From: Candidatus Latescibacterota bacterium
GTDB taxonomy: Bacteria; Latescibacterota; UBA2968; UBA8231
Direction of reading: 5' to 3'
Assembly (NCBI GenBank): GCA_965203355.1
Contig: OZ241889.1
Span: 1,888,001-1,952,000 of the forward strand
Length of the DNA stretch: 64,000 nucleotides
In this document: piece after piece, positions 22,010-59,025 of the stretch
Layout of the letters: each line of letters opens with the position of its first letter
How positions within the stretch are numbered: position 1 is the first letter of the stretch
Position numbers and translations under genes: made by a program
Notes under the pieces: model-generated
Database searches by the model: none
What the model was told of the DNA's origin: nothing
What the model saw: only the letters and a program-made list of their open reading frames with translations

Positions 22010-24676
22010 ATGAAAAGTCAATGGTTTTTGCTCAGCGCCGCAGGTCCCGTACTTGCGGCATTTTTCTGGATCGTCGGCCCGGCGTTTGGCCAAGCATCCG
22101 ATGCCCGCGACCCCTACTTTGCCCGCGACCGCGTGCTCGATGTGGCCATTGAGATGGCGGCTGAGGATTGGGATCGCCTGCGCGCCCAGACGCGGACCTA
22201 CACGGGCATATTCGGTGGAGCCGACTGCCTCGACAGCCCCCCCAAGGACGTGTTCTCTTGGTTTGAGGCGACGGTAACGGTGGATGGCGCAAGCCACACC
22301 CAAGTTGGCGTCCGCAAGAAAGGGTTCTACGGGTCGCTGAGCAAAGTCAAGCCCTCGCTCAAGGTCCGCTTCGACAAGTTCGTCGATGGCCAGCTCCTCG
22401 GCGGCGTGATGAAGCGCCTGACCCTGAACAATGCCGTGCAAGACCTGTCCATGATCAATACCTGCATGGCCTACCACGTCTTTGCCGCGGCCGGCCTGCC
22501 GACGCCGCGCTGCAACTTTGCTACTGTGGCGGTGAACGGCGAAAACCTGGGCTTATACGTGCATGTGGAGAGCATGAAAACCGCGTTTTTAGAACGCAAT
22601 TTCTCCGATTCAAGCGGCAATTTCTACGAAGGCACCTTCAGCGATTTCCGGCCCGAGTGGCGCGGTTCTTTAGAAAAGAAAAACAACGAGGCGGCCGCAG
22701 ACTGGTCGGATATCGACGCGGTCGTCGCCGCGCTGCAAGACTCTTCCCCGGCCGGGCTTGAAGCCCTCGCCGAGATCGTCGACCTCGACCGCTTCCTCAC
22801 CTTCTGGGCAACCGAAGTGCTCATCGGGCATTGGGATGGGTATGCCGGCCACCTCAATAACTTCTACATCTACCGCGAGCCGGGCGAGCCGTTTGTGTTC
22901 ATGCCTTGGGGTGCCGATTCAGGGTTTGCGTCGTTAGATACCCCCGAAGACGACTTTGAGTCGCCGGTCTCGGTGCTGGCCAACGGGGCCATCGCGCATC
23001 GCCTGTACCACGACGACGCCATGCGCGCCGCCTATGTAGGCCGCCTCAAGCACCTGCTCGACGCGGTCTGGAACGAAGCAGTGCTATTGCAACGAGTCGA
23101 CGAAATGGCCGCTCTGGTCCAAGAACATGCGCTGGCCGAAAGTCGCGCCGATGCCGCCAGAGACGCAGACCGGGTGCGCCGCTTCATCCGCGAGCAGCGG
23201 GCCGAGATCCTCGCTGAACTCGACCCAGAGCCGCCGGAGTGGCCTTGGTCGCCGCAGTCTAAGGCCGACATGTGTATGCCGGAAAGAGGCTCTTTTGATC
23301 TGGTCTTTGAGACGACTTGGGGGTCGAGTGACAGCGAGGATCCACTCGCGAAAGGGACCGTCGCGTTTACCCATTATCGGTTGGACGGCAAAGAGCAGCG
23401 CTTTGAGCACTCGGGGGCCACGGCCGGAATCGACAGAAATAGGGCAGCAAGCTGGGATGAAGGGTTGGGTGCGCTCGACGCGGCCGGCGATGGCCTCGTC
23501 GACCAAGAAGACTACGATGCAGCCCTGGCCCGAGGCATTGAAGACCTGCCGCGGTGGGAGGACCTGCTCACCTTAGATACCAACGGCGACGATGCCATAG
23601 ATCGGGAAGAGTTTGAAGCGGTCGTGGGCGTGGGAAGCGCGGAAGCGGGAGAAGAAGGCCAGGCGTCCATAACCATCTCCAGCGCCAGCGATGGGCCGGA
23701 CTCTTCCACTTACGTACTGAATGCGACGATGCCAATACATGCAATAGTCAGCGACACCACCTTGGCTTTCGAGTTGGATGCGCTCAATGGCTATTACTTT
23801 GCCACGGCCACGGACCAGTTTGGTCTAATCGGCCAAGGAGGGATTGAGTTCGACGCGGCCAGCACCGAACCGGGGGGGAAAATCTCGGGCCGGCTCTATG
23901 GCACTATATTCGGCCATGGCGGAGGCGTGGCTCCAGCCGCTGAAGACGACAAAGAGTCGGCAAAAACCGAACTGGTTATCAACGAGGTCGCCGCGCAAGG
24001 CGATCCTCTCGACTGGTTTGAACTCTACAATGCCTCGGCTAGCCCGATAGATCTGGCCGACTTTGTGCTGGCCGACGATCTGACGGACGCCGACAAGCGC
24101 GTTCCTTTTCCGGCCGGCACGGTCATCGCAGCGGGTGCATTTTTGCAGATTCAGCTCGACAAAGAAGAGTGGCCCGGCTTTGCCCTGGGCCGCGACGAAG
24201 AGCTGGGCATTTGGACGGCCGATGGCCGGTTGATGGCCCAGATCGACTGGGACAAGGGACAGGCCGACGAGGGAACGAGCTGGGCGCGCATACCGGACAT
24301 CACGGGCGATTTTCAGACCGTAAGCCCGCCTACGCCGGGTGCGCGCAACCAGATCGAGACAGCGGTCGCCGAGCAGGCCGCCGGCGCGCCCGAGGCGTTT
24401 CGGCTGCGCGGCAACTGGCCCAACCCATTCAACGCCAACACGATCATTGCCTTTGACTTGCCGCAGACCGCCCCGGTGTATCTGGTGGTGTACGACGTGC
24501 TCGGCCGCCGCGTTTGCGCCCTGCACCGCGGGAATGCGCTGTCGGCCGGCCACCATCGCACCGCTTGGAATGGCCGCGACGATGAGGGCCGCCCCGTTGC
24601 CAGCGGTGTGTATCTGTACCAACTCGCGGTTGGGGGCGGCTTTACCGCGGTGGGACGGATGGCCTTGATACGGTAA
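22010..24676 (+). CDS. Secreted CotH-family kinase with EF-hands, lamin-tail domain and FlgD-Ig/T9SS-like C-terminal domain
   Basis: VGVRKKG, KPSLK, HWDGY..NNFYIY, PWGAD; DTNGDDAIDREE; INEV..DWFELYN; NWPNPFN..WNGRDD.G..VASGVYLY. Confidence 0.85.
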   Translation: MKSQWFLLSAAGPVLAAFFWIVGPAFGQASDARDPYFARDRVLDVAIEMAAEDWDRLRAQTRTYTGIFGGADCLDSPPKDVFSWFEATVTVDGASHTQVGVRKKGFYGSLSKVKPSLKVRFDKFVDGQLLGGVMKRLTLNNAVQDLSMINTCMAYHVFAAAGLPTPRCNFATVAVNGENLGLYVHVESMKTAFLERNFSDSSGNFYEGTFSDFRPEWRGSLEKKNNEAAADWSDIDAVVAALQDSSPAGLEALAEIVDLDRFLTFWATEVLIGHWDGYAGHLNNFYIYREPGEPFVFMPWGADSGFASLDTPEDDFESPVSVLANGAIAHRLYHDDAMRAAYVGRLKHLLDAVWNEAVLLQRVDEMAALVQEHALAESRADAARDADRVRRFIREQRAEILAELDPEPPEWPWSPQSKADMCMPERGSFDLVFETTWGSSDSEDPLAKGTVAFTHYRLDGKEQRFEHSGATAGIDRNRAASWDEGLGALDAAGDGLVDQEDYDAALARGIEDLPRWEDLLTLDTNGDDAIDREEFEAVVGVGSAEAGEEGQASITISSASDGPDSSTYVLNATMPIHAIVSDTTLAFELDALNGYYFATATDQFGLIGQGGIEFDAASTEPGGKISGRLYGTIFGHGGGVAPAAEDDKESAKTELVINEVAAQGDPLDWFELYNASASPIDLADFVLADDLTDADKRVPFPAGTVIAAGAFLQIQLDKEEWPGFALGRDEELGIWTADGRLMAQIDWDKGQADEGTSWARIPDITGDFQTVSPPTPGARNQIETAVAEQAAGAPEAFRLRGNWPNPFNANTIIAFDLPQTAPVYLVVYDVLGRRVCALHRGNALSAGHHRTAWNGRDDEGRPVASGVYLYQLAVGGGFTAVGRMALIR

Positions 24677-31702: not shown

Positions 31703-31738
31703 CGTTTGAATCTACTCCGTGCCAGAGCAAGGCAAATC

Positions 31739-34081
31739 ATGGACTCGAGCGACCGATGCTTTAGACGATTCGTCTCGTGCTTGTGTGGGGTTGTCTGCGC
31801 CTTTTTTGCTGAGCCTGCGGGCAGTGCCGACGAAATGCGCTTTGCCACCCGCCGCGACTGGCAGGCTTGGCCGCTGCCCGGCACGGTTGAGCTGACGCCG
31901 CAAGGTTCCCTTAAGCCCGTCGCGGTTCGGCGCGACATTAATGCGTCCCTCAATGCCGCAGCTTTTGGCGGCGGCATCCGCCGTGCGGGTTCCAATCGAC
32001 GCGATGCGCCGCTGGTCGTGGATGGCGATCGCTCCACTGGTTGGTACCCCCATCTGGACGACCCCCCTGAAAGCTGGACCATTGAGATCGATTTGGGGCG
32101 GGGCGTCTCCGCTCGTCGCGTCAAGTTGATCTTCGACCCCGCAGGCCCGGCCCCGCCGCTTTTTGACCTGTTGCTTTCCACGGGCGAACACGCGGTTGAC
32201 GCGGTCGATACCCCCATCGCCGAAAGCGTCATCTACCGTCTGCGCGAGCGTTTCAAGGCGAACACGCGCCACGAGATCACCTATGAACTCGACCAGTCCT
32301 TCCACACGCCGATCCAGTACGTGCGCTTGGATCTGCTCGCCCTCGAAGCGAACACCCGCCTGCTCGAAGTCGAGGTCGAAGCGCTGGGCGACAACATGGC
32401 TTTGGGGATGCTCAAACGCGGCGGCAATCTCGAAGTCGTTCTCGATGCGTTCGTCGCGCAAGACCTCATTCCGCTGGGCAACGCCCAAGTGCTCATCGAC
32501 GGCGACCTCTCCACCCGTTGGTTTGTCCGGCGCACCATCCAGGCCGAGCGCGATGTATTTTCGCACGTCATCCTCGATTTGGGTGCCACCTACTTTGTCG
32601 ATACGTTCAAAATCGTCGGCGGCGTAGTCGCTCGGCCCGGCGGCGGCATCACGGCTGGTAGTGGTCAGGTCATCGACTTCTTCATCTCCCGACGCTCCTT
32701 TGGGTTCAATTTCTACGAAGTGCTCGGTTCCGACGGATCCACGGCGCCCGATGGCACCCTGATCTGGCAGAAGCACTATTCCGGCACGGCGAGCGAATAC
32801 GTCAGACAAGTAACCGGCGCGGCCACCCACGAGTTCGGGCTGGTGCCCACTCGCTTTATCCGGGTGCTGTGGAAGAGCTGGGACGCGAGCAATCGCTGGG
32901 CCTTCCGGGGCTTTGCCGAGGAGCTTCAGGTGTTCGGCGAGGGCTTCCCGCAGAGCTTGGAATTTCGCTCGCATCTGCTTGACTTCCAAGGATCCAAAAG
33001 CCTCAACACCCTATCTTGGCAAGCCGACATCCCGCCGGGAACCCGGCTGGAAATACGCAGCCGCTCGGGCAACGAGATCAAAAACCGCTTCACCTACTAC
33101 GACAAAAACGGCAAGGAAGTCACCGAGAAGCGCTACGGCAAGCTGATTCCGAGCTTCAAGGGGCCTATTGACACGGCCCGGGTCATTGGCGGCGACTGGA
33201 GCGCGTGGAGTAAGCTATACGCCTTCTCTGGCCAAGCGTTTCAATCCCCTTCGCCGCGCCGCTACGCCCAAATTCAGCTGCGGATGGTCGCGGAAGATCC
33301 AGCGCTGGCACTCCAGCTTGACGCGCTCAGCATTGCCTTCAGCGACCCGTTATCCCTCGGTGCGGTCAGCGAAATTTTCCCGACTCAGGTTGCACCGGGC
33401 CAGGAAACCGAGTTTCGCTTTTTCTTGCGCCCGCGTGCGACCCAGGCATCCGGGTTTGACCGCCTCGTCTTGGAGACGCCGACGCCCGCCCGCTTTGTTC
33501 GCGCCTTGGTCAACGACGCGCCCGTAGCGGTTGAGCACCAGCCGGTCAAAGCGGGCTTTGCGGTGACGTTCCCTCAGCCGCTGCGCGACGACGACCTCGT
33601 CGAATTGCGCTTTGCCGCCCCAGTATTTCAGCAGTCCACTCCCTTCGTCCTCTTCATTCAAGACGCGCAGGCTGAGGACGCCGGCCGCCAGCGCGTCGAG
33701 CCCGGGGACGCCACCGACCAAGTCGCCAGCAGCACCAACGTCGTCGGGCTGCCCGTTGCCCGCGACCTCTTGCTCAACGTCGTCTTCGATACCGCCGTGC
33801 TGACGCCCAACGGCGACGGCATAAACGATGTGCTCGCCGTCCACGCCGACGTGATCAACATTCTCGAACCGCGCCCTTGGCACCTGCGGCTCTACGACTT
33901 GGCCGGCCGCGCACTCGTCGAGCGCGGGCAAGCTGTTACCGCAGGTGCTCAGGGCTTCACTTGGAATGGCCGCGACCAAGCCGGCCAACGGGTCCCGCCC
34001 GGTCTCTACGTGCTCGAACTCCACCTCGATGGAGACGCTCAGCAGCAGCGCGTCCGGCGCGTGATTGCCGTGGTGTATTGA
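31739..34081 (+). CDS. Secreted protein with discoidin (F5/8C)-like domains and a C-terminal FlgD-Ig domain
   Basis: VDGDRSTGW..IDLG and IDGDLSTRW..LDLG; TPNGDGIND..WNGRD..GQRVPPGLY. Confidence 0.75.
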   Translation: MDSSDRCFRRFVSCLCGVVCAFFAEPAGSADEMRFATRRDWQAWPLPGTVELTPQGSLKPVAVRRDINASLNAAAFGGGIRRAGSNRRDAPLVVDGDRSTGWYPHLDDPPESWTIEIDLGRGVSARRVKLIFDPAGPAPPLFDLLLSTGEHAVDAVDTPIAESVIYRLRERFKANTRHEITYELDQSFHTPIQYVRLDLLALEANTRLLEVEVEALGDNMALGMLKRGGNLEVVLDAFVAQDLIPLGNAQVLIDGDLSTRWFVRRTIQAERDVFSHVILDLGATYFVDTFKIVGGVVARPGGGITAGSGQVIDFFISRRSFGFNFYEVLGSDGSTAPDGTLIWQKHYSGTASEYVRQVTGAATHEFGLVPTRFIRVLWKSWDASNRWAFRGFAEELQVFGEGFPQSLEFRSHLLDFQGSKSLNTLSWQADIPPGTRLEIRSRSGNEIKNRFTYYDKNGKEVTEKRYGKLIPSFKGPIDTARVIGGDWSAWSKLYAFSGQAFQSPSPRRYAQIQLRMVAEDPALALQLDALSIAFSDPLSLGAVSEIFPTQVAPGQETEFRFFLRPRATQASGFDRLVLETPTPARFVRALVNDAPVAVEHQPVKAGFAVTFPQPLRDDDLVELRFAAPVFQQSTPFVLFIQDAQAEDAGRQRVEPGDATDQVASSTNVVGLPVARDLLLNVVFDTAVLTPNGDGINDVLAVHADVINILEPRPWHLRLYDLAGRALVERGQAVTAGAQGFTWNGRDQAGQRVPPGLYVLELHLDGDAQQQRVRRVIAVVY

Positions 34082-47262: not shown

Positions 47263-47340
47263 TGGTCGGGGTGGTCGGATTTGAACCGACGACATCCTGC
47301 TCCCAAAGCAGGTGCGCTGACCGGACTGCGCCACACCCCG
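47263..47340 (-). tRNA. tRNA-Pro(TGG)
   Basis: CGGGGTG acceptor stem, anticodon arm CCTGC-TTTGGGA-GCAGG, GGTTCAAATCC T-arm, encoded CCA. Confidence 0.97.
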
Positions 47341-47646: not shown

Positions 47647-47774
47647 AAAGAAAATGGGACCTCAAACCGAAAATTGAGGTCCCATTTCCGTAACTCGCTG
47701 TATGCGGTGCCGCGTATGCTACTTGAGCAGCAGCATCTGGACGGCGAGGAAATCACCGCCGGCCTGCAAGCGGT
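47647..47774 (-). repeat. Orphan duplicate of the 3' tail and terminator of the giant surface-protein gene (intact copy at 47801-47926)
   Basis: First 50 nt identical; encodes RLQAGGDFLAVQMLLLK* versus RLQAGGDFLDIKKMLLLK*. Confidence 0.9.
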
Positions 47775-47800: not shown

Positions 47801-47841
47801 AAAGAAAATGGGACCTCAAACCGAAAATTGAGGTCCCATTT
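47801..47841 (-). terminator. Intrinsic terminator of the giant surface-protein gene
   Basis: 14-bp stem AAATGGGACCTCAA/TTGAGGTCCCATTT followed by a T-rich run on the minus strand. Confidence 0.85.
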
Positions 47842-47867
47842 CCGTAACTCTCGCGGTATCGCGTATG

Positions 47868-50800
47868 CTACTTGAGCAGCAGCATCTTCTTGATGTCGAG
47901 GAAGTCACCGCCCGCTTGCAAGCGGTAGAAGTACATCCCCGACGACACGCTCTGGCCGCTATCGTTGGTCGCGTCCCATTCCACCGCGTAGCGACCCGCC
48001 GCCTGATGCTCGGCGACCAGCGTCCGAATCGGCTGACCCAACACGTTATACACCGTCAGCCCCACGTCCGCCGCCTGCGGCAACGCATACTGAATCGTCG
48101 TCTGCGGATTGAACGGGTTCGGATAGTTGGCTGCCAGCGAGAACACGGCCGGGCGCGTCTGTAACGCCACTGGCGCGGGCAAGGCCAGCCGGTTGAAGCC
48201 CAACGCCCGGTCATACGTCTGGCTGTCGGTGATTTCGAGGGTCGTGTGCGCGATCTCGGTCGTCGGACGGAACACCAAGCGCAGCATCAGTTCACCGTCC
48301 GAAACGACATCGCCGTGGGCGGCTACCGTCAACACGCCCGCTTGGTCGGCCAGCACCTGCGGCGTAGCGAATGCGCTGCCGCCCAGCGGCTGATCGGTCC
48401 GAGCCTCAACGAAGGTTAGCTGGTCAGCGTCATACGCTATCTGCAAGCCGTAACCCTTGACCGCCACGAAGTCGGCCAATCGCACATTGACGACGAACTC
48501 TTCTCCCACGCTCGGCAGGGCTGTCGGCGCATCCAGATACAGCCGCGCATCCGCATTCAGCCCGGTCCGCAGCGGCACTGGCTTGCCCGCCGCGGCCACG
48601 CTGCGACCGAAATGGTCGGCCAACACGAAGAAATCGTCGAAGTCAATCGTCCCATTCGGCGCCAGGTCAAACGCCGGATCAAACCCGGCGTCGCCCGCCG
48701 TCAAACCGAAGCGGTCCGCCAACACGAAGAAATCGTCGAACCCAATGCGCGCGTCCGCACCGAACAGCCCCAACAGAGCCTGCCCTTGGCTATCGGCCAC
48801 CCGGTTGCGGACGGCCAATGCGGTCTGCTCGACCGAACCGGTCTCGTTGTCCCAATCAAAGGGCCGCACCTGATAGTTGTAATGCACCCCATGCTGCGCC
48901 GTCTCATCAACGAAGGACGCCACCCCGGCCTCCACCTCGGCGACCACGGAAAACGCTTCGTCTCCCACGGCGCGGCGATAGATGCGGTAGCCATGTACGC
49001 CCACGATCGGCTCGACCGGCGCCGGGCCTAGCGCACCGGCCACGACCCCTTGCAGCACCTGATCCGACGGCGACAGCGTCCACGTCAGCGCGATGCGACC
49101 GCCTTGATCGTCGGGCGCATCCAACACCTGTAGTGCCGACACGGCCAATGGCGCAATGTCGTCGGTCGCCCGCACGGCTTCAGCCGTCCAAGTAATCGAC
49201 GAACTCAGTACGCTACCGACGACATTCAACTTCGGTGCCACGCCGCGAGCGTAGGCTAATTCTTCCGGCAGCAACGACGCCAGCACCGGACCGCCCTGCG
49301 CGGCATTCCGGCTGGCTTGCAACGTCGCCGCCATCTGCGTGTAAGGCTGCGTCACATCGTCGGCCTCGACGAACACGGCTTTGGCCGCATGATGCGTGGT
49401 GCGCCCCCCGCGCTCGGCGGCAATGCCCCAGCGCGTCGAGACATTGTCCAGCGTCGCCACGATAGCGCGGCCCATCGCCACCCCGGGCACGGCATCCACC
49501 CGCGCCCACGGCACCATCTCATTTTCCAGCACCGGCAAGGCGCGGAAGATGCGATAGCCGTCCAGCGACTTATGATCCGCCGATAGCTCCCAAGACAGCA
49601 TCACGAAACCGCCTTGGTCGCCCTGGCCGTCCGCGCCTTTGTAGTCCTCGGCAATCAGATTGGTCGGCGCCGACAGCGGCGGCTCCACCACCGCCATGCC
49701 CACCGGCAGCGACTGACTCGCGCCACTGGCATCTACGACCGTGTAGGTCGCTACGGTCTCGCCCATCGTCGTCGGCGTCCCGGAAATCGTCCGGGTGGCC
49801 GGGTCAAACGACAGCCCGGCTGGCAAACCCGACACGCTATACGTCAGCGGCGGGGTGCCCCCGGAGACCGCCGGCAGCGTCAAGTTTGCTGGCACACCGA
49901 CGGTGAATTGAATCCTGTTGTCGGTATGCGAGTCGGCCGGATTGGCTTTGCCAGCACCGCTGTTGAGACCGAACAACGAACTCAGGTCGCCCCAGTCCAG
50001 CATCGCGTTGACTGTAATTGTGAACATCAACGAGACGCTTTCGTCGCCAGCCATCGCCGTGTAGGTGACTTCAACGGCCCCATCGGTCGCCGCTTCCGGT
50101 GTCCCGGAAATCGTCCGGGTGGTCGCGTCAAACGACAGTCCGGCTGGTAGATCCGACACGCTATACGTGATGGAGCCTTCGCCGCCCAGCGCCATCGGCA
50201 ATTCCAACGAGTGAATCGCCGTGCCCGCCGTATAGTTCTGGTTGGGAATCGAAGCACCCTCGACGAAAGCCAAGGCGATCATCATCTCCCTATCGCCGTC
50301 ATTATCGTCCATCATCCCGCTGTCTGTGTCGGTCAGCACCAGCGTCGCCGAACCCGCCGTCAAGCCCGGCAGCATCGCATTGAGCACCACCGTCTCGTCG
50401 CCTTCAGCCATACCATCGGAAACCGGATCAATCAACAGGCGCGTCGAACCCATAATCGAACCGGCGGCAATGGTAATCGTCGGATTGAATAGGGCCGAGT
50501 AGTCCGTGTCGCGGGTGGCACTACTCGAAGCCGCGTCAATCGAAACGGAGACCGTCGCGTTCTCGGCCAGCGGCTTGCCGTCCAGCGCGGCCATGACCAT
50601 CACCTCGGTCAATTCCGCCGACTCGCTGAGTGCGCTCGGCGTCACCGACAGCACCAAAGACGTGCTCGGCGTCTCGTCGTCGGAAATGCGGATGTCCACC
50701 TGCGCCCAACCGCCCGAAGCCGCCGCCCGAACCCCCAAGTGCTTATGACCGGCCGCCGAAGCGTTGTCAATCGGCGACAGGAACAGCGTCGTCCAACCCG

Positions 50801-53572
50801 CCTTTTCCCCGGCCGCGATGGTGACGGTCCCCGCTAAAGTCGCGGTATAATCCACGTCGCGGGTGGCCATCGCGCCGCTGGCCGGCGGCACAATCGTGAA
50901 GTGGACCGTCTCAGCCGCCGGAGCCGCGCCCGACAGAGTCGCCGTAACTCGGATTTCAGCCGTCTCGCCGTTTTCGCGCACGGCCGATTGCGAAGCCATC
51001 ACGCTGGCAACGCCAATCGTAACCGGCGCGGCGTCCGCGACCGTGATGGTGAAAGTCCGCACCCCGCCATCGCCGTCGGCATCAATCGCCGTATAGACGA
51101 CCGAGGCCATGCCCGCCAGCGTCGGCGTCCCGGAAAGCGTCCGCGTGGCCGCGTCAAACGACAGCCCCAGCGGCAGGTTCGACGAAACGCTGTACGAGAG
51201 CGTGCCTTGGCCGCCCGTGGCCGCGGGCAACACCGCGCTAAACGTTTGGCCAACCGTCGCTTCAAAGGCTAACGCGGCCGTGCCGAAACTCGGCCATCCC
51301 GTGTCCGCGGGCGTCTCGGAAGAATCATCCATCATCGCCGCGTCTTTCAGCTTGATCGCCACGGGGTCGACCGTGATCTTGTCGTCGTCTTGGTTCTTGA
51401 GGTCGTCCTTGAGTGGCTTCAGCGTGATCGTCTCGTCGTTGTCGGCGGCTCCGTCGTTGACCGGCGTGATCGTGATCGTCGTTGAGCCGGTGATCTCGCC
51501 CGCCGGAATCGTCAGCGAGCGAAGCACCGCCGTGTAATCCACATCCCGCGTCGCGGCACCGGACGCATCCTCATCCAAGACCAACGAGATCGTCGCATCC
51601 GCGTCGAGCACCTTGCCGTCTAACGTGCCGGTCACCGTGACCGTCGTCTCACCCGCGTCCTCTTTGATTTCACTCGGATTGACCGACAGCGTGATGTTCT
51701 CGCTCAGCGTCTCATCGTCCGTGATCTTGAACTCCACCGTATCCTTCTGAGACGCTTCGGTGCCGACCTTCGCTATCACCTCGAACGTCCGCGCATTATG
51801 CGAAGTGCTGTTGTCCACCGGTGTGACGCGCAGCGTCGCCGTGCCTTTCTTATCGCCCGCCGGGATCGTCAAGCCCTCAATGACTTCCACCTCGTAATGC
51901 ACATCGCGCGTCCCCTCCCCCGCCGTAATCTGAAAGTCCACCGCCTTCGCACCGGTTAAAGCCGTCTCCAACTCAACGGTCATCGTAACGTCCGTCACCC
52001 CAGCGGCCTCGCGGATGGTCGCCGGACTTAGCGTAAAATTCTTGAGCCGCGCCACCGCAACGTCTTCGACCGTGATGGTGCCGGGGTTGACCACAATAGG
52101 AATGACAAAAGAGTCCACATGCTTTAAGACATTATTTGGACCAGTATTGGGGATAGCATCAGGAGAGATTGACCCATCGCCGTTAAGGTCTATACCAATC
52201 GAGAGTTGCCTCACGTTGGTGCCAGCACCAAAATAAATAGGGGTCTGGCCCTGTCGGAACAGGGAGATACCTACTTCCGTTAATGCGCTATCGGCGGGCA
52301 CCACATAGGTATCCAAATAATCGCCATCATTGAAAAAATCGATCCCCAAGTCTTTTTCTACTAAGACGGTGCCCGCAGGGATGGTGTCGGAGTCCCTCAG
52401 ATTCCAAATATTATTATCCGTATCTAACCCAACATTTACATCACCCGCCGTATCACCTTCTCTGGTTCCAACATCCCCATCGCCGTTGAAATCTATGCCG
52501 ATGACTATAAGTTGGTTTCTATTAACTAATTCACGGATTGTACCGCTGGTTTTGACATCACCATCTGACTCGAAGGTCCCATCAACTTGCCTGTCGATCC
52601 GGACCTGCTTACCAGCACTATTCATCCGTTTCTTGAACGTCACATCCAGCGTCGCATCCTTGGTCCCCAGCACGATCTTACCCGCCTTATTATTCGGATC
52701 GACGGTGATCGTCGTCGTCGCGTCGATCCGCCGCTTTGGAATGGTCAACTTCCCCAGCCCCCGAATCGAGTAATCCACATCCCGCGTCAACGTACTAGTA
52801 GAAGAAACAACCAATTGAGTTTCAAGGTCGCGCTCCGTCCACGAGCCGCCCTTCAACAGCGCCGTCACTTCAACCGAGGTCGCATCCGCCTGCTTGCTGA
52901 GCTTGGCCGGCGAAACAGAGAGGTCGATATTGGGGACGAACACATCGTCGTCAATCAGCTCGATATAGAAGACGCCCGTAACACCAGTAAGATTCTCCAT
53001 ATAGGACGCGGCGGTTTTGCCTTTCTCGAAAATGGTTCCAGTAGAACCCCCTACGTCAATCACGATAGGAAGATTAACCCGCATTTTAACCTTACCCGTA
53101 TCGACCGCCGTACCCGCCGTTATGGTCAGGGTATCGACATCCGCCGAAGCGTTGGCCGCGTTAATTCCAATCCGATTATTGTTGATCGGAGTTATGGTGA
53201 TCGTCCCGGTCGCCTTGCGCTCGCCCTTCTTAATCACCAAAGAGGGGAAAGAGATTCTGAACAAATCGTTGAGATAGCGGGACGTGACACCGACAAGACG
53301 CAGCGGAAGCTGAAGATCGGCCTTCGCCTTCGCGTCAGCCGTTCGCAATTCGGCTGTTATCGTAATATCCTGCGCCCCTCCATCCTCGCGGACGGAACGC
53401 CGGTCAACGGATATGTCGATGTTCTCGGTCTGCGCCGCAGCCTCCCCGGCCCAGCCCAACACCAAACTGGCCACCAGCAAACAAAAAACGCTGTAAGTCG
53501 TTGTTTTTGAAAGACTTAACCCCCCCCCCCCCGACTTTCTGAGGACTGCACGAGCAACTTGAAGAGTTTCAT
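47868..53572 (-). CDS. Giant secreted surface protein (Calx-beta-like and putative Ig repeats, FnIII-like, dockerin/EF-like, cohesin-like, FlgD-Ig/T9SS-like CTD), frameshifted at a G13 tract
   Basis: TRDVDY repeats, three LPxGLSFDxATRT.SGTP repeats, two FDDFFVLADxFG, NYPNPFNP; ATG 53572 after GAGGAGG is out of frame with the main ORF 47868-53480. Confidence 0.85.
53520..53532 (-). repeat. G13 homopolymer in the signal-peptide coding region
   Basis: 13 consecutive C on the + strand. Confidence 0.95.
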
Positions 53573-53713
53573 TATTTAGCCTCCTCTGGGCTTAGGTAAG
53601 TGATAAAGGGAATTGTGCTTGACGCAAAAATTAAAGAAAGCCACGCTTTTGAGCAACAAGATATGTCGAAGGGATAAAAAGCCGTCAGTCCCTCGGAGAT
53701 TTTTATGGAGCGT

Positions 53714-53983
53714 TTAGCCGGGCAAACGCGACAAAATCAGTGTGCCTAGGGCTAGTAGGGTGGTCAATTGGATACCGATAAGCCAGCGAAAATCGCGGCG
53801 TTGCTCCTGCCGTAATGCGGTCAACTCCTGCCGCATCTCCTGCCGTAGTGCGTCAACGGATCGCTCTATGTTGTCAAAGCGGGCGTTGATCTGGCGACCT
53901 TGCTCGGTCAACTGCTCGGCGATGCCTTCCAGCCGTCCAAGGCGGCGGTCGTGGTCTTGGTCTTGGGTAATCGGTTCGTTCAT
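53714..53983 (-). CDS. Small coiled-coil protein with C-terminal TM helix (DUF1640/Bdr-like)
   Basis: Heptad region LRQEMRQELTALRQE, then FRWLIGIQLTTLLAL; GGAG RBS. Confidence 0.65.
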   Translation of the reverse strand: MNEPITQDQDHDRRLGRLEGIAEQLTEQGRQINARFDNIERSVDALRQEMRQELTALRQEQRRDFRWLIGIQLTTLLALGTLILSRLPG

Positions 53984-54023
53984 GGCTCCAGCCTTTCAGC
54001 GCATCAACCCGGCGCGGCGGTCG

Positions 54024-54857
54024 CTAGAGCGTAGAGGCGCGAGAAAGGCGGTGAGCGTTAATGGCGTCGCGCAGGGTTAGGGTCGCCTGCCGGGCCGCCG
54101 CCGCGAAATCGCTGCCTTGGGAGGCGTAGAGGATGCTGCGCGAGGAATTGATGAGGATGCCCGCGCCGCGCGAGTCGCCGCCGTTTTTGACGGCCAGCGC
54201 TATAGAGCCGCCTTGCGCGCCAACCCCGGGTATCAGCAAGGGCATGTCTGGCGCTAGGCCGCGGAGGCGCGCCAAGGGCTCGGGTTGGGTTGCGCCGACG
54301 ACTAGGCCGATGTTGTTGGCGGCGTTCCACTCGTGGGCTTTGGCGACGACCTGCTCGTATAAGGGCCGATCGCCCAGCGGATTCTTCTGAAAATCGTCGG
54401 CTCCGGGGTTGGACGTCAGGCAGACGAGAAAGGTGGTGCGGTCTCGGTACGCGGTGAAGGGCGAGACGCAGTCGTGGCCCAAATAGGGCGTTACTGTCAG
54501 CGCGTCACAGCCGAGGACTTCGTAGAAGGCGCGGGCGTATTGCTCGGCGGTGTTGCGCATGTCGCCGACCTTGGCATCGATGAGCACCGGGATGTCGGCG
54601 GGAATGTGGTCGAGCGTGCGTTTGAGCGTGGCAAAGCCGCCCGCGCCGAGGGCGTTGTAGAAAGCGAAGTTGGGCTTGTAGCAGCAGACGAGATCGCAGG
54701 TGGCGTCGATGATTTGCTGGTTGAAGTAGAGGACGGGATCGGCTTGGGTGCGGACGCTGGCGGGCAATTGCGCCGGATCGGTATCCAGCCCGACGCAGAC
54801 TAGCGAGTTATTCTTGGCGATCGCTCTCTTCCATTTCTCCGTAAAGCTCAAACTCAT
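54024..54857 (-). CDS. pyrF: Orotidine-5'-phosphate decarboxylase
   Basis: CVGLD, YKPNFAFY, DAKVGD, TSNPG, GLVVGAT, PGVGAQGG, NSSR. Confidence 0.95.
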   Translation of the reverse strand: MSLSFTEKWKRAIAKNNSLVCVGLDTDPAQLPASVRTQADPVLYFNQQIIDATCDLVCCYKPNFAFYNALGAGGFATLKRTLDHIPADIPVLIDAKVGDMRNTAEQYARAFYEVLGCDALTVTPYLGHDCVSPFTAYRDRTTFLVCLTSNPGADDFQKNPLGDRPLYEQVVAKAHEWNAANNIGLVVGATQPEPLARLRGLAPDMPLLIPGVGAQGGSIALAVKNGGDSRGAGILINSSRSILYASQGSDFAAAARQATLTLRDAINAHRLSRASTL

Positions 54858-55927: not shown

Positions 55928-56303
55928 GGGAGAAGTAAGTCTATAAGCCGAGTTCTGTCCACGCACCGGAAGTGCGCTGTGCGGGCATTCATCTGGGGCG
56001 GCGGTTGCCCGACCGCCTCGGTGCAGCTTACCCGGGAATCTAGCGAGGCGGACCGCCTCTTTTCCCCTATTTAGCCTTGCTCCGGATGAGGTTTACCCTG
56101 CCACCGGCGTCGCCGCCGATGCGGTGAGCTCTTACCTCGCCTTTTCAACCTTACCCAGCAAGCTGGGCGGTGTGTTTTCTGTGGCACTGTCTGTGGGGTC
56201 GCCCCCCCTGGGCGTTACCCAGCATCCTGTCCTGTGGAGCTCGGACTTTCCTCACTAGCGGCCACTGAGGGCTGCTAGCGTGCCCGCCCGACTTACTTCT
56301 CCC
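55928..56303 (-). ncRNA. rnpB: RNase P RNA, bacterial type A
   Basis: GAGGAAAGTCCGAGCTC, CAGTGCCACAGAAAA, ACAGAACTCGGCTTA; P1 ends GGGAGAAGTAAGTC/GACTTACTTCTCCC. Confidence 0.97.
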
Positions 56304-57214: not shown

Positions 57215-58162
57215 TCAAGAGAGCAGCGACCGCGCCGCCTGCGCGACGTGTCCGGGGGTCAAGCCGTATTTTTGCAGCAGGTCTTCGTTGGGGGCGGATT
57301 CGCCGAATACGTCGCGGATGCCAACGCGCCGCATGGGCGTGGGACGCCGCTCGCCTAGCACTTCAGCGACCGCGCCGCCCAAGCCGCCGACGATGGTGTG
57401 GTCTTCGGCCGTTACTACGCAGCCCGTTTGCGCGGCCGCGGCGACAATGGCGTCTGCGTCGAGTGGCTTGAGGGTCGGTACATGGAGGACGAGCGCCGAG
57501 ATCCCTTCGCGTGCCAACTCGTCGGTCGCGGCGAGGCAGCGCGGGGTTTGGGCGCCCGTGGATATGAGAGTGATGTCCGTGCCTTCGCGCAGGACCAGGG
57601 CGCGGCCCAACTCAAACTCGTAGTCGGCTGGGAAGACGACAGGTTCCGGGTCGCGCGTCATGCGCACGTACACCGGGCCGGGCAAGTCGTTGGCCGCCAG
57701 CATACAGGCGCGGACTTCTACGGCGTCGGCCGGGGCCAAAACGGTCATATTCGGCATGGCGCGCAGGACGGAGATGTCGGCGATCTCTTGATGGGTTTTG
57801 CCGGTTTTGCCAGTCAACAAGCCCGAGTAGGCACCGCAGAGCTTGACCGGTAGATTGGGCTGGGCGACGACGACGCGGAGCTGGTCGAGATCGCGGTTGA
57901 CGATGAAGCAGGCGAAGCTGCTCAGCCACGGCACGAGGCCGCAGGTGGCCATGCCAGCGGCGACGCCCATCATGTTTTGCTCGGCAATGCCCATTTCGAG
58001 GAAGCGGTCGGGCCGTGCGCGGGCGACTTTGTCGGCCTTGGTCGAGTTGGCCAAGTCGCCGTCGAGCACGTACACGCGCGGGTCGCGGTCCATCAGTTCG
58101 ATGAGTGTGTCGCCAAAAGCGTCGCGCTGGGCCAGCATCTCGCCGGTGGTGGAGAGGTTCAC
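57215..58162 (-). CDS. Transketolase, C-terminal subunit
   Basis: GIAEQNM, GKTHQ..D, GPVYVR, EDH..GGLG; GTGA overlap with the upstream gene. Confidence 0.92.
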   Translation of the reverse strand: MNLSTTGEMLAQRDAFGDTLIELMDRDPRVYVLDGDLANSTKADKVARARPDRFLEMGIAEQNMMGVAAGMATCGLVPWLSSFACFIVNRDLDQLRVVVAQPNLPVKLCGAYSGLLTGKTGKTHQEIADISVLRAMPNMTVLAPADAVEVRACMLAANDLPGPVYVRMTRDPEPVVFPADYEFELGRALVLREGTDITLISTGAQTPRCLAATDELAREGISALVLHVPTLKPLDADAIVAAAAQTGCVVTAEDHTIVGGLGGAVAEVLGERRPTPMRRVGIRDVFGESAPNEDLLQKYGLTPGHVAQAARSLLS

Positions 58163-59025
58163 AGAGCGGCCTCCTGTGTGGCGAGTTCGTCTTGCGCTTG
58201 TTTGAGATCTTGGTCGGTCACGGGTTTGGAATGCCAGTTGAAGTCGTTTTCCATGTAGGAGATTCCTCGGCCCTTGATCGTGCGGGCGACGATAATGGTG
58301 GGTTGGCCGCGGTGTGATTTGGCTGCGGCAAAGGCCGCGAGAATGGCGGGGAAGTCGTGGCCGTCGGTCTCGATGGCGTTCCAGCCAAAGGCGCGCCAGC
58401 GGTTGAGCGGATTTTCCTGCGCGGCCAAGCGGTCGAGCACGCCGTAGCCCTTTTCGGTAGCCCAGCCGTATTGCTGGAGGCCGTTCCAGTCGAGGATGGC
58501 GGTGAGATTGTCGAGGCCGTAGCGCGCCGCGACAAAGGCCGCCTCCCATATTTGCCCCTCCTGTGAGTCGCCGTCGCCGATCATCACCCAAGTGCGGAAG
58601 CCTCGCCCTTGCAGACGGGCGGCGAGGGCCATGCCGAGGCCGGGCGACAGGCCCTGGCCCAGCGAGCCGGTGGACATGTCGAGGCCGGGGAGGACGCTCA
58701 TGTCTGGATGCCCTTGTAGGCGGGAGTCCACGGCGTCAAAGGTGGCGAGTTCCTCAATGGGCAGGTAGCCGCGCAGGGCCAAGGCCGCGTACAGACCGAT
58801 CGAGGAGTGTCCCTTGGATAGGATAAAGCGATCGCGGTCTGGGTCGTGCGGTCGGTCTGGGTCGATGTTCAACTCGGCGAAGTACAGGGCGATGAGCAAC
58901 TCGGCCGCGGACATGGGGCCACCTAAGTGGCCGGCCCCGGCGCGGTGTACCGACTCGACGACGAGGCGGCGCAACTGGATGGCATGGCGCTTTAGTTCGG
59001 CGTGGCGCGCGTGCGTCAGGCTCAT
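58159..59025 (-). CDS. Transketolase, N-terminal (TPP-binding) subunit
   Basis: GHLGG, LSKGH, LQGHP, TGSLGQG, GDGD.QEG. Confidence 0.93.
   Translation of the reverse strand: MSLTHARHAELKRHAIQLRRLVVESVHRAGAGHLGGPMSAAELLIALYFAELNIDPDRPHDPDRDRFILSKGHSSIGLYAALALRGYLPIEELATFDAVDSRLQGHPDMSVLPGLDMSTGSLGQGLSPGLGMALAARLQGRGFRTWVMIGDGDSQEGQIWEAAFVAARYGLDNLTAILDWNGLQQYGWATEKGYGVLDRLAAQENPLNRWRAFGWNAIETDGHDFPAILAAFAAAKSHRGQPTIIVARTIKGRGISYMENDFNWHSKPVTDQDLKQAQDELATQEAAL

Follow-up and report, generated by a model that had tools for sequence, protein, structure and literature searches.

A 13-nucleotide G run between the start codon and the signal-peptide core of a giant T9SS surface-protein gene: a candidate phase switch in an uncultured FCB-group bacterium

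Contingency loci are textbook matter in a few host-adapted pathogens. For pilC of Neisseria, Jonsson et al. 1991 is reportedly the reference that is cited. In the neisserial genes pilC1 and pilC2 a poly-G tract lies within the signal-peptide coding sequence and frameshifts result in ON/OFF expression (PMC13017665; PMC5953494). The second source lists the tract as G (9-20), genic (PMC5953494). Each of the about 11 opa genes of Neisseria carries CTCTT repeats in the codons for its leader peptide (PMC3745409). For the sialidase nanH3 of Gardnerella a preprint reports a poly-C tract (8-14) about 100 bases into the ORF, directly after the signal peptide (bioRxiv 10.1101/2020.09.16.300947). Full protein is made only at lengths 9 or 12, and the other lengths give peptides of 37-44 residues; the dominant length varies by strain and is mostly OFF, and sequencing of clones demonstrated length variation inside cultures (bioRxiv 10.1101/2020.09.16.300947). 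Judged by title or abstract, no paper was found on contingency loci in sponge symbionts or for T9SS cargo.

Here we describe a G run in the 5' region of a gene for a giant, predicted surface protein. It lies in a 64-kb stretch of DNA (the window, i.e., the whole stretch that was analysed), for which an earlier note had claimed a contingency locus. The 5' region of the gene has the following features:

53587..53713, minus strand: leader or intergenic stretch from the upstream small ORF to the Shine-Dalgarno sequence, without a located promoter
53580..53586, minus strand: Shine-Dalgarno sequence GAGGAGG, by sequence reading, with a 7-nt spacer to ATG 53572
53570..53572, minus strand: ATG from which translation of the surface-protein gene probably started originally, by n-region matrix score
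53516..53572, minus strand: 18-codon leader frame to TAA 53518-53516, the N-terminal remnant of the gene at tract length 13
53520..53532, minus strand: uninterrupted G13 (C13 on the plus strand), the sole homopolymer above 7 in 64 kb, which sets the frame of ATG and ORF
53433..53483, minus strand: signal-peptide core of the family, hydrophobic and with an Ala-rich end, CLLVASLVLGWAGEAAA followed by Q, which shares the reading frame of the large ORF

The earlier note had read GAGGAGG ahead of ATG 53572 and a frame which closes right behind the tract. Re-reading of the minus strand reproduces both, with the TAA of the leader frame directly 3' of the uninterrupted G13. The tract also is, as claimed, the longest homopolymer of the window, the runners-up being eight runs of 7. 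At the composition of the window 0.016 G or C runs of 13 are expected in 64 kb. The run is uninterrupted and of slippable length, which for a homopolymer means about 8-9 or more; it lies within the coding frame close to the 5' end, and its length shifts the frame of the functional part. A role of the tract as promoter spacer was considered and rejected because it is located downstream of both Shine-Dalgarno sequence and ATG.

The tract was rebuilt in silico at 7-20 G and codons were counted from ATG 53572. Lengths of 8, 11, 14, 17, and 20 lead to about 1900 codons, which bears out the proposal that G14 or G11 restores the frame with the 1870-aa ORF. Length 13 leads to 18 codons and length 12 to 55. 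Ahead of TTG 53480, its first listed start, the large ORF stays open in frame, and this open frame continues through the tract. At 13 G start codon and signal-peptide core sit in different frames, i.e., the locus was indeed captured OFF. A scan for sigma-70-like promoters from 53300 to 54200 returned 0 sites. In four sequencing runs only one contig per run covers 53515-53678; thus, in those runs the leader is unique at a likeness of at least 90%.

The remainder of the gene and its 3' flank comprise:

47868..53480, minus strand: large ORF for the giant surface protein, 1870 aa from TTG 53480, no internal stop over 5.6 kb
49401..51200, minus strand: three putative Ig domains of the He_PIG type (100.6 bits over 3 stretches)
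47871..48140, minus strand: T9SS type A C-terminal sorting domain (PF18962 and TIGR04183 above curated cut-offs)
47801..47850, minus strand: hairpin-bearing stretch of 50 nt just past the stop codon, a probable terminator (repeat family D3; inverted repeat and T run read from the sequence)

Publicly the gene is called as P0002, with 1868 aa from GTG 53474. PF18962 scores 31.7 bits (cut-off 27, last 90 residues) and TIGR04183 31.6 bits (cut-off 23); Calx-beta-like and other Ig-like matches near the He_PIG region stay below cut-offs. By its sorting domain, its He_PIG domains and its family signal peptide the product is predicted to be surface-exposed T9SS cargo. T9SS-type C-terminal domains also occur in two other proteins encoded in the window, at 22010-24676 and 31706-34081. 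An origin in the FCB group, as presumed earlier, fits the T9SS sorting domain and the neighbouring transketolase subunit, the best named matches of which are Latescibacterota and Gemmatimonadota MAGs with 78% identity.

The 4.17-Mb genome has 15 paralogs, this gene included, all of them T9SS cargo with variable N-terminal parts. The family is also present on related contigs of 4.52, 2.80, and 1.59 Mb. Identity among the paralogs is 48-67% over the first 500 residues and 80-98% over the remainder; the N-termini as called look uninterrupted in 13 of the 15. In the conserved part the ORF examined here shares 82-97% identity with its paralogs. As it is also intact over 1870 codons, the break is recent or reversible. 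A duplicated 3' end lies beside the gene, which shows recombination among family members. The product, a predicted T9SS surface protein of a 15-member family with variable first 500 residues, is of a kind which is phase-varied elsewhere.

The N-termini of the protein family were used to examine where translation starts. The core CLLVASLVLGWAGEAAA aligns with the conserved family sequence LLAAxLVLGWAGEAAAQ, and the n-region of the family has the pattern M-x-x-x-K-L-L-x-Q/R. The first ten residues encoded from ATG 53572 are MKLFKLLVQS. Scored with a matrix of 54 distinct family N-termini this peptide reaches 8.8 versus a maximum of 6.7 among 4742 other start-codon 10-mers of the window. With a matrix built from 45 N-termini of other genomes only, the score is 9.6 versus a maximum of 8.0 among the same 4742 10-mers. 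The peptide is homologous to the n-region of the family and is therefore a part of the gene that was cut off, rather than a uORF in its own right. K or R is found ahead of the hydrophobic core in 83 of 85 family N-termini. The distance to the GW motif has a family median of 24 residues with a range of 14-26 (85 N-termini). A start at TTG 53480 or GTG 53474 leaves 8 or 6 residues, uncharged; a start at ATG 53572 leaves 39, which exceeds all 85 family members. A complete Sec signal peptide is present only from ATG 53572 with an in-frame tract, and from TTG or GTG there is the uncharged core alone. A GG within the first 20 residues or a GGG within the first 45 occurs in none of the 85 family N-termini. 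The tract sits in an insertion of about 15 codons between charged n-region and hydrophobic core which is specific to this gene copy. The earlier note had named mixed Gly codons in homologs as an argument against a switch; 0 of 85 homologs have Gly residues at the site.

The sequences ahead of the candidate starts differ as well. A 6-nt match to the anti-SD complement, AGGAGG, precedes ATG 53572, and 1.1% of random positions of the window reach 6 nt. Neither TTG 53480 nor GTG 53474 is preceded by a Shine-Dalgarno match of at least 4 nt. The assertion that TTG 53480 lacks a ribosome-binding site and a charged n-region is thus confirmed on both counts. A 4-nt match is found at 20 of the 43 longest-ORF starts of the window versus 27% of random positions. 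As starts without a Shine-Dalgarno sequence are common in the window, initiation at TTG 53480 or GTG 53474 is conceivable. On the sequence evidence, ATG 53572 is probably the original start of the gene.

The reading which we prefer, and hold to be moderately probable, is a slipped-strand switch of the pilC/opa type, caught OFF. Translation would start at ATG 53572 from a strong ribosome-binding site, and the length of the G run would decide whether this start codon is in frame with the remaining codons for the 1900-residue T9SS surface protein. At lengths of 8, 11, 14, and 17 the complete protein would be made, carrying 2 to 5 glycines in the part which is removed after export. Length 13, as sequenced, would yield a peptide of 18 residues, and the exported protein would be absent. 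Slipped-strand mispairing in replication, by gain of one G or loss of two, would turn the gene ON and later OFF again. The principle would be the same as that of the poly-G of neisserial pilC and of the CTCTT repeats of the opa family. We infer that changes of tract length are frequent enough to be useful and that they govern expression. Since the 15 paralogs have variable outer (N-terminal) parts, such switches would let single cells display differing sets of surface proteins. Tentatively, one may extend this to an uncultured FCB-group bacterium with an opa-like repertoire, i.e., fifteen giant T9SS surface proteins of which several are gated singly by long G/C runs; we regard such a repertoire as possible yet somewhat doubtful.

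The tract was compared in contigs of four public runs, which represent at most three samples and two studies. One study is possibly the source of the window; hence at least one of the two is independent. In 4 of 4 runs one contig spans 53443-53933 (53391-53933 in run X6) with 0 other letters, 0 gaps, and 13 G. The tract is real and no assembly slip. No tract-length variants or indels at the tract are present in the contigs of the four runs, with one covering contig per run. A single in-frame length in all reads had been named as a finding which would speak against a switch; what the contigs of the four runs have is a single out-of-frame length, 13. Contigs drop minority variants, thus the single length in four runs is weak evidence either way. 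The depth of the tract-spanning contig is 57 / 33.3 / 560 / 89, compared with 64.1 / 33.8 / 510.7 / 69.9 for a neighbouring single-copy contig; such depths cannot reveal minority tract lengths. A very unstable tract without selection should vary among samples, and the same OFF length in all four runs counts against the switch. Of the original claim of a contingency locus, then, the anatomy of start, tract and signal core, the OFF frame and the family-like n-region stand; switching itself does not emerge from contigs with length 13 only. Among the runs which contain the stretch 0 are on record as RNA. Two runs with the label sponge metagenome, X1 and X2, share no more than 0.06 of the words with the stretch and have no bearing on habitat.

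Related DNA was sought in several collections. The exact flanks of the tract with a variable gap had 0 matches in JGI metagenome contigs. The N-terminal 393 aa gave 144 pattern matches and 0 relatives in GTDB genome contigs, and an N-terminal alignment gave 454 pattern matches and 0 relatives in metagenome contigs. With the alignment of the whole family 674 relatives were obtained from GTDB genome contigs by patterns which derived from the generic T9SS tail. For this reason the 80 loci kept, unrelated cargo from many FCB phyla, are uninformative for the 5' end. The only long match was L032, from a Gemmatimonadota MAG; genomes with the N-terminal domain numbered 0 of 1 for this match and 0 of 2 for its 'phylum'. 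Short gene calls which read through the tract, i.e., an ON variant in other assemblies, numbered 0 among 109 candidates from a collection which may omit short partial calls.

Other explanations for this layout must be weighed. The tract may mark a recent frameshift which is fixed, leaving a young pseudogene or a silent recombination stock for the 14 other paralogs, with no biologically useful switching rate. The identical OFF length in all four runs agrees with this, the 14 other paralogs could make the copy dispensable, and the duplicated 3' end beside the gene attests recombination in the family. However, a random frameshift needs no long homopolymer, and the only one in 64 kb is placed exactly between start and signal core. 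Further, Shine-Dalgarno sequence and ATG are intact, and the 1870-codon ORF is otherwise undamaged at 82-97% paralog identity in the conserved part. We consider a fixed frameshift rather unlikely. A somewhat smaller chance goes to a protein made from TTG 53480 or GTG 53474, with the Shine-Dalgarno sequence, ATG and G13 forming a short leader uORF, regulatory or without a role. Such a protein would have a signal peptide devoid of the charged n-region seen in 83 of 85 family members, and its stretch ahead of GW would fall far short of the 14 residues that are the minimum in the family. Its two start codons have no Shine-Dalgarno sequence, and the homology of the upstream peptide to the family n-region would have to be accounted for. 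On the other hand, the gene caller chose GTG 53474 (P0002), about half of the ORF starts in the window lack a Shine-Dalgarno sequence, and the remaining LVASLVLGWAGEAAA keeps a hydrophobic core and an Ala-x-Ala end. The paralog P0006 likewise is called with a short, uncharged start, which looks truncated.

Two further explanations leave the DNA unchanged or put the length of the tract down to error. Ribosomes may slip by -1 on the four GGG codons, or RNA polymerase may add or drop a G, with constitutive low expression as the result. Four consecutive GGG codons followed immediately by a stop permit perfect re-pairing after a -1 slip, and a fixed 13 in all runs suits a set-point rather than a switch. 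Yet no stimulatory RNA structure is seen 3' of the tract (fold z -0.34 for the 90 nt downstream, z +1.21 for leader plus tract). The two-frame layout is not conserved either: at the protein level a Gly run occurs in 0 of 85 family N-termini, and 83 of 85 are called in a single frame with a charged start. Transcriptional slippage is also much rarer on G/C runs than on A/T runs, which counts against recoding. We rate it as highly improbable. Finally, the true tract could be in frame and miscounted. Long-read assemblies miscount homopolymers, and the window stems from a single contig of 4.17 Mb, which suggests such an assembly. An artefact of this kind has nevertheless hardly any chance in view of contig sets from 4 runs and 2 studies which all have exactly 13 G and 0 differences over 491-543 nt.

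Should the tract switch, random variation of the cell surface would be available to uncultured FCB bacteria, environmental or symbiotic, as well. If the opa-like repertoire is true, single cells of a non-pathogen would show shifting combinations of surface proteins, e.g., in escaping host phagocytes or phages. The public call P0002 from GTG 53474 hides both the tract and what probably is the real start; switches of this type are thus invisible in protein catalogues. Further, such tracts are easily 'polished away' in long-read assemblies.

How does the proposed slipped-strand switch compare with the known systems? As in pilC, a run of G is embedded in the codons for the signal peptide of a surface or adhesion protein, and the length of 13 lies within the 9-20 given there. 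pilC codes for a pilus-associated proteobacterial protein, whereas the predicted product here is T9SS cargo of an uncultured FCB-group bacterium. In contrast to pilC, the protein has 1900 residues and is one of 15 paralogs, and the tract lies in an insertion which is absent from the rest of the family. Variation is demonstrated for pilC, and the tract presented here is known from sequence at one length (13). In nanH3 the tract follows the signal peptide, here it is inside, and length variation was observed for nanH3. Both genes have a homopolymer close to the 5' end and code for a protein which is, or is predicted to be, exported to the cell surface; only every third length is, or would be, productive. 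In opa a pentamer repeat is present in every copy; here, it is a homopolymer, and 13 of 15 paralog N-termini as called look uninterrupted. The likeness to opa is that surface proteins are encoded by many gene copies, and that repeats in the leader codons would put each copy in or out of frame on its own, which would generate mixed surface repertoires.

The 5' end of the gene for the giant surface protein lies on the minus strand and is built as follows.

53586-53580, minus: Shine-Dalgarno sequence (SD) GAGGAGG, then 7 nt to ATG 53572
53572-53516, minus: short frame of 18 codons from ATG 53572, passing through G13, with its TAA at 53518-53516
53532-53520, minus: uninterrupted G13
47868-53480, minus: large ORF, 1870 aa counted from TTG 53480

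The SD, the ATG and the stop right after G13 are all present in the sequence, as the earlier note had claimed. The frame of the large ORF is the neighbour of that of ATG 53572 and is open across the tract and upstream of it. The tract was rebuilt in silico with 7-20 G's. Lengths of 8, 11, 14, 17 and 20 give about 1900 codons from ATG 53572; length 13 gives 18 codons and length 12 gives 55. This bears out the claim that G14 or G11 restores the frame with the 1870-aa ORF. The tract, taken at first sight for the longest homopolymer, is indeed the sole one exceeding 7 in the 64-kb window (expectation 0.016 at window composition).

Where does the gene start? The signal peptide of the family is strikingly conserved: M-x-H-x-K-L-L-M-Q-R-L-A-Y-V-P-W-L-L-A-A-G-L-V-L-G-W-A-G-E-A-A-A-Q. 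Its second half is found in the frame of the large ORF (…YSVFCLLVASLVLGWAGEAAAQ), its first half in MKLFKLLVQS, with which translation from ATG 53572 would begin (K-L-L-x-Q at positions 5-9). Scored against a position matrix of 54 distinct family starts, these ten residues reach 8.8; against one of 45 starts from other genomes only, they reach 9.6. Both values exceed those of all 4742 other start-codon peptides of the window (maxima 6.7 and 8.0 on the two matrices), yet among true family members they rank in the lowest 11-17%. An SD match of 6 nt precedes ATG 53572; none precedes TTG 53480, as had been noted, or GTG 53474, the start of the public gene call. The 85 family N-termini compared have a median of 24 residues ahead of the GW motif (range 14-26). 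Read from ATG 53572 with one extra G, the window gene has 39. GG within the first 20 residues or GGG within the first 45 occurs in 0 of the 85. Thus, judged by these comparisons, the upstream short frame is the severed head of the gene's own signal peptide, and the tract belongs to some 15 inserted codons that have no counterpart in the family. Searches of metagenome and GTDB genome contigs yielded no DNA of paralogs or relatives for this 5' end. The sequence AAGTC stands on both sides of the tract plus TT (53537-53533 and 53517-53513, minus), a 5-nt direct repeat that may be due to chance or be a relic of how the insertion came about.

K or R precedes the hydrophobic core in 83 of the 85 N-termini. 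The uncharged exceptions are P0062, probably outside the family, and P0006, one of the paralogs from this genome. As called, the N-terminus of P0006 (MTYGVCCLLVAS…) has no charged head, and none matches the window's …TTYSVFCLLVAS more closely; a comparable 5' device may interrupt the P0006 gene.

The tract length was checked in Logan contigs of the four best-matching public runs (X3-X6) among six with part of the stretch; the four represent at most three samples from two studies, one of which may be the window's own source. In every run a single contig crosses the tract, from 53443 to 53933 in X3-X5 and from 53391 to 53933 in X6, and it shows neither a mismatch nor a gap. Insertions and deletions at the tract are likewise lacking in these contigs, which drop minority variants. 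In each run the depth bins 53515-53678 equal the depth of the single spanning contig, so a second version of the region was not assembled. The tract contigs, with depths of 57, 33.3, 560 and 89, are on the level of adjoining single-copy contigs (64.1, 33.8, 510.7 and 69.9). As the contigs of all four runs give 13 without a variant, the prevailing length in every sample is 13, the contigs being silent on mixed lengths either way. An assembly miscount is very unlikely, and an artefact can hardly be the explanation when the contigs of four runs carry exactly 13.

On balance we lean towards a slipped-strand switch caught OFF. Lengths of 3n+2 would bring ATG 53572 into frame with the signal peptide and the rest of the 1900-residue protein; the run would then encode a few glycines in a part cleaved off after export. 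At G13 translation from the sole good start would stop after 18 codons, and the remaining in-frame starts would yield a signal peptide minus its charged head. Hence the gene is most likely OFF or strongly reduced at this length. A gain of one G or a loss of two by slipped-strand mispairing would bring the protein back. Past the break the ORF is undamaged and still closely similar to its paralogs, which fits a reversible or a very recent break. A fixed, recent frameshift or a silent copy is fairly unlikely in our estimate; of note, all four runs share the identical OFF length, which would not be expected of a fast, unselected switch.

Initiation downstream at TTG or GTG, with the tract in a leader uORF, we regard as unlikely. 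SD-less starts are common, a 4-nt match being present at 20 of the 43 longest-ORF starts of the window versus 27% at random, and a product from these codons is therefore conceivable. However, both starts are without an SD, and the signal peptide would miss the charged head of nearly all relatives. Constant low expression via -1 ribosomal slippage or transcript slippage appears improbable, because RNA structure is absent (fold z -0.34 and +1.21) and the device is not conserved (no Gly run in any family N-terminus).

In the product of the large ORF three He_PIG Ig-like domains and a T9SS type A sorting domain are recognised, the latter scoring over both curated cut-offs; Calx-beta-like and cohesin-like matches are weaker. 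A protein search retrieved its public call, P0002 (1868 aa, start GTG 53474), together with 14 paralogs encoded alongside it on one contig of 4,171,184 bp. Relatives form families on many further contigs, among them ones of 4.52, 2.80 and 1.59 Mb. Identity across the 15 paralogs averages 48-67% over the first 500 residues and 80-98% beyond them; 9 of the 15 contain a module of about 400 residues. T9SS cargo is anchored by its C-terminus, so the variable N-terminal part would face outward. The proposed FCB-group origin agrees with a nearby transketolase subunit, whose best named matches are Latescibacterota and Gemmatimonadota MAGs (78% identity), and with one distant family member named as from a Gemmatimonadetes MAG. 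Two more large proteins have T9SS-type C-terminal domains (22010-24676 and 31706-34081, both plus), one CotH kinase-like with a lamin-tail domain, the other with an F5/8 type C domain; near their starts there is no homopolymer exceeding 7.

The gene's last ~70 nt and its hairpin terminator are present twice, about 150 nt apart (47647-47774 and 47801-47926; 50 nt at 100%, 35 nt at 94% and 49 nt at 84% identity). The copy farther downstream resembles what would remain of a second family member's 3' end after recombination between paralogs. Directly downstream lies a tRNA-Pro (TGG; 47263-47340, minus); tRNA genes often serve as insertion sites. Immediately before the leader of the surface-protein gene is an 89-aa ORF (53714-53983, minus) without a Pfam or NCBIfam match, whose product is coiled-coil-like and ends in a hydrophobic C-terminal stretch. 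Over the first ~70 nt of this ORF (53913-53983) each of the four runs is roughly 3 to 30 times deeper than in the flanks; the piece is therefore multi-copy in those samples. Further upstream are a full-length bacterial class A RNase P RNA (55928-56299, minus; 300.6 bits) and a longest ORF of 458 aa from TTG (57215-58591, minus), which over-extends a transketolase C-terminal subunit. All its close homologs have 311-322 aa and cover 65-69% of the ORF; consequently the true start is internal.

Such a device in this setting, a T9SS cargo, an uncultured FCB-group bacterium and a 15-gene family, was not found in open-access papers and bioRxiv; as far as this literature goes the setting is new. The device itself is that of Neisseria pilC, where poly-G inside signal-peptide codons undergoes slipped-strand mispairing (PMC13017665, PMC5953494). 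About 11 Neisseria opa genes use the proposed mechanism too, through CTCTT repeats in their leader-peptide codons (PMC3745409). A further parallel to G13 is the poly-C of Gardnerella nanH3: the full protein is made only at lengths 9 and 12, and the dominant length differs among strains and is mostly OFF (bioRxiv 10.1101/2020.09.16.300947).
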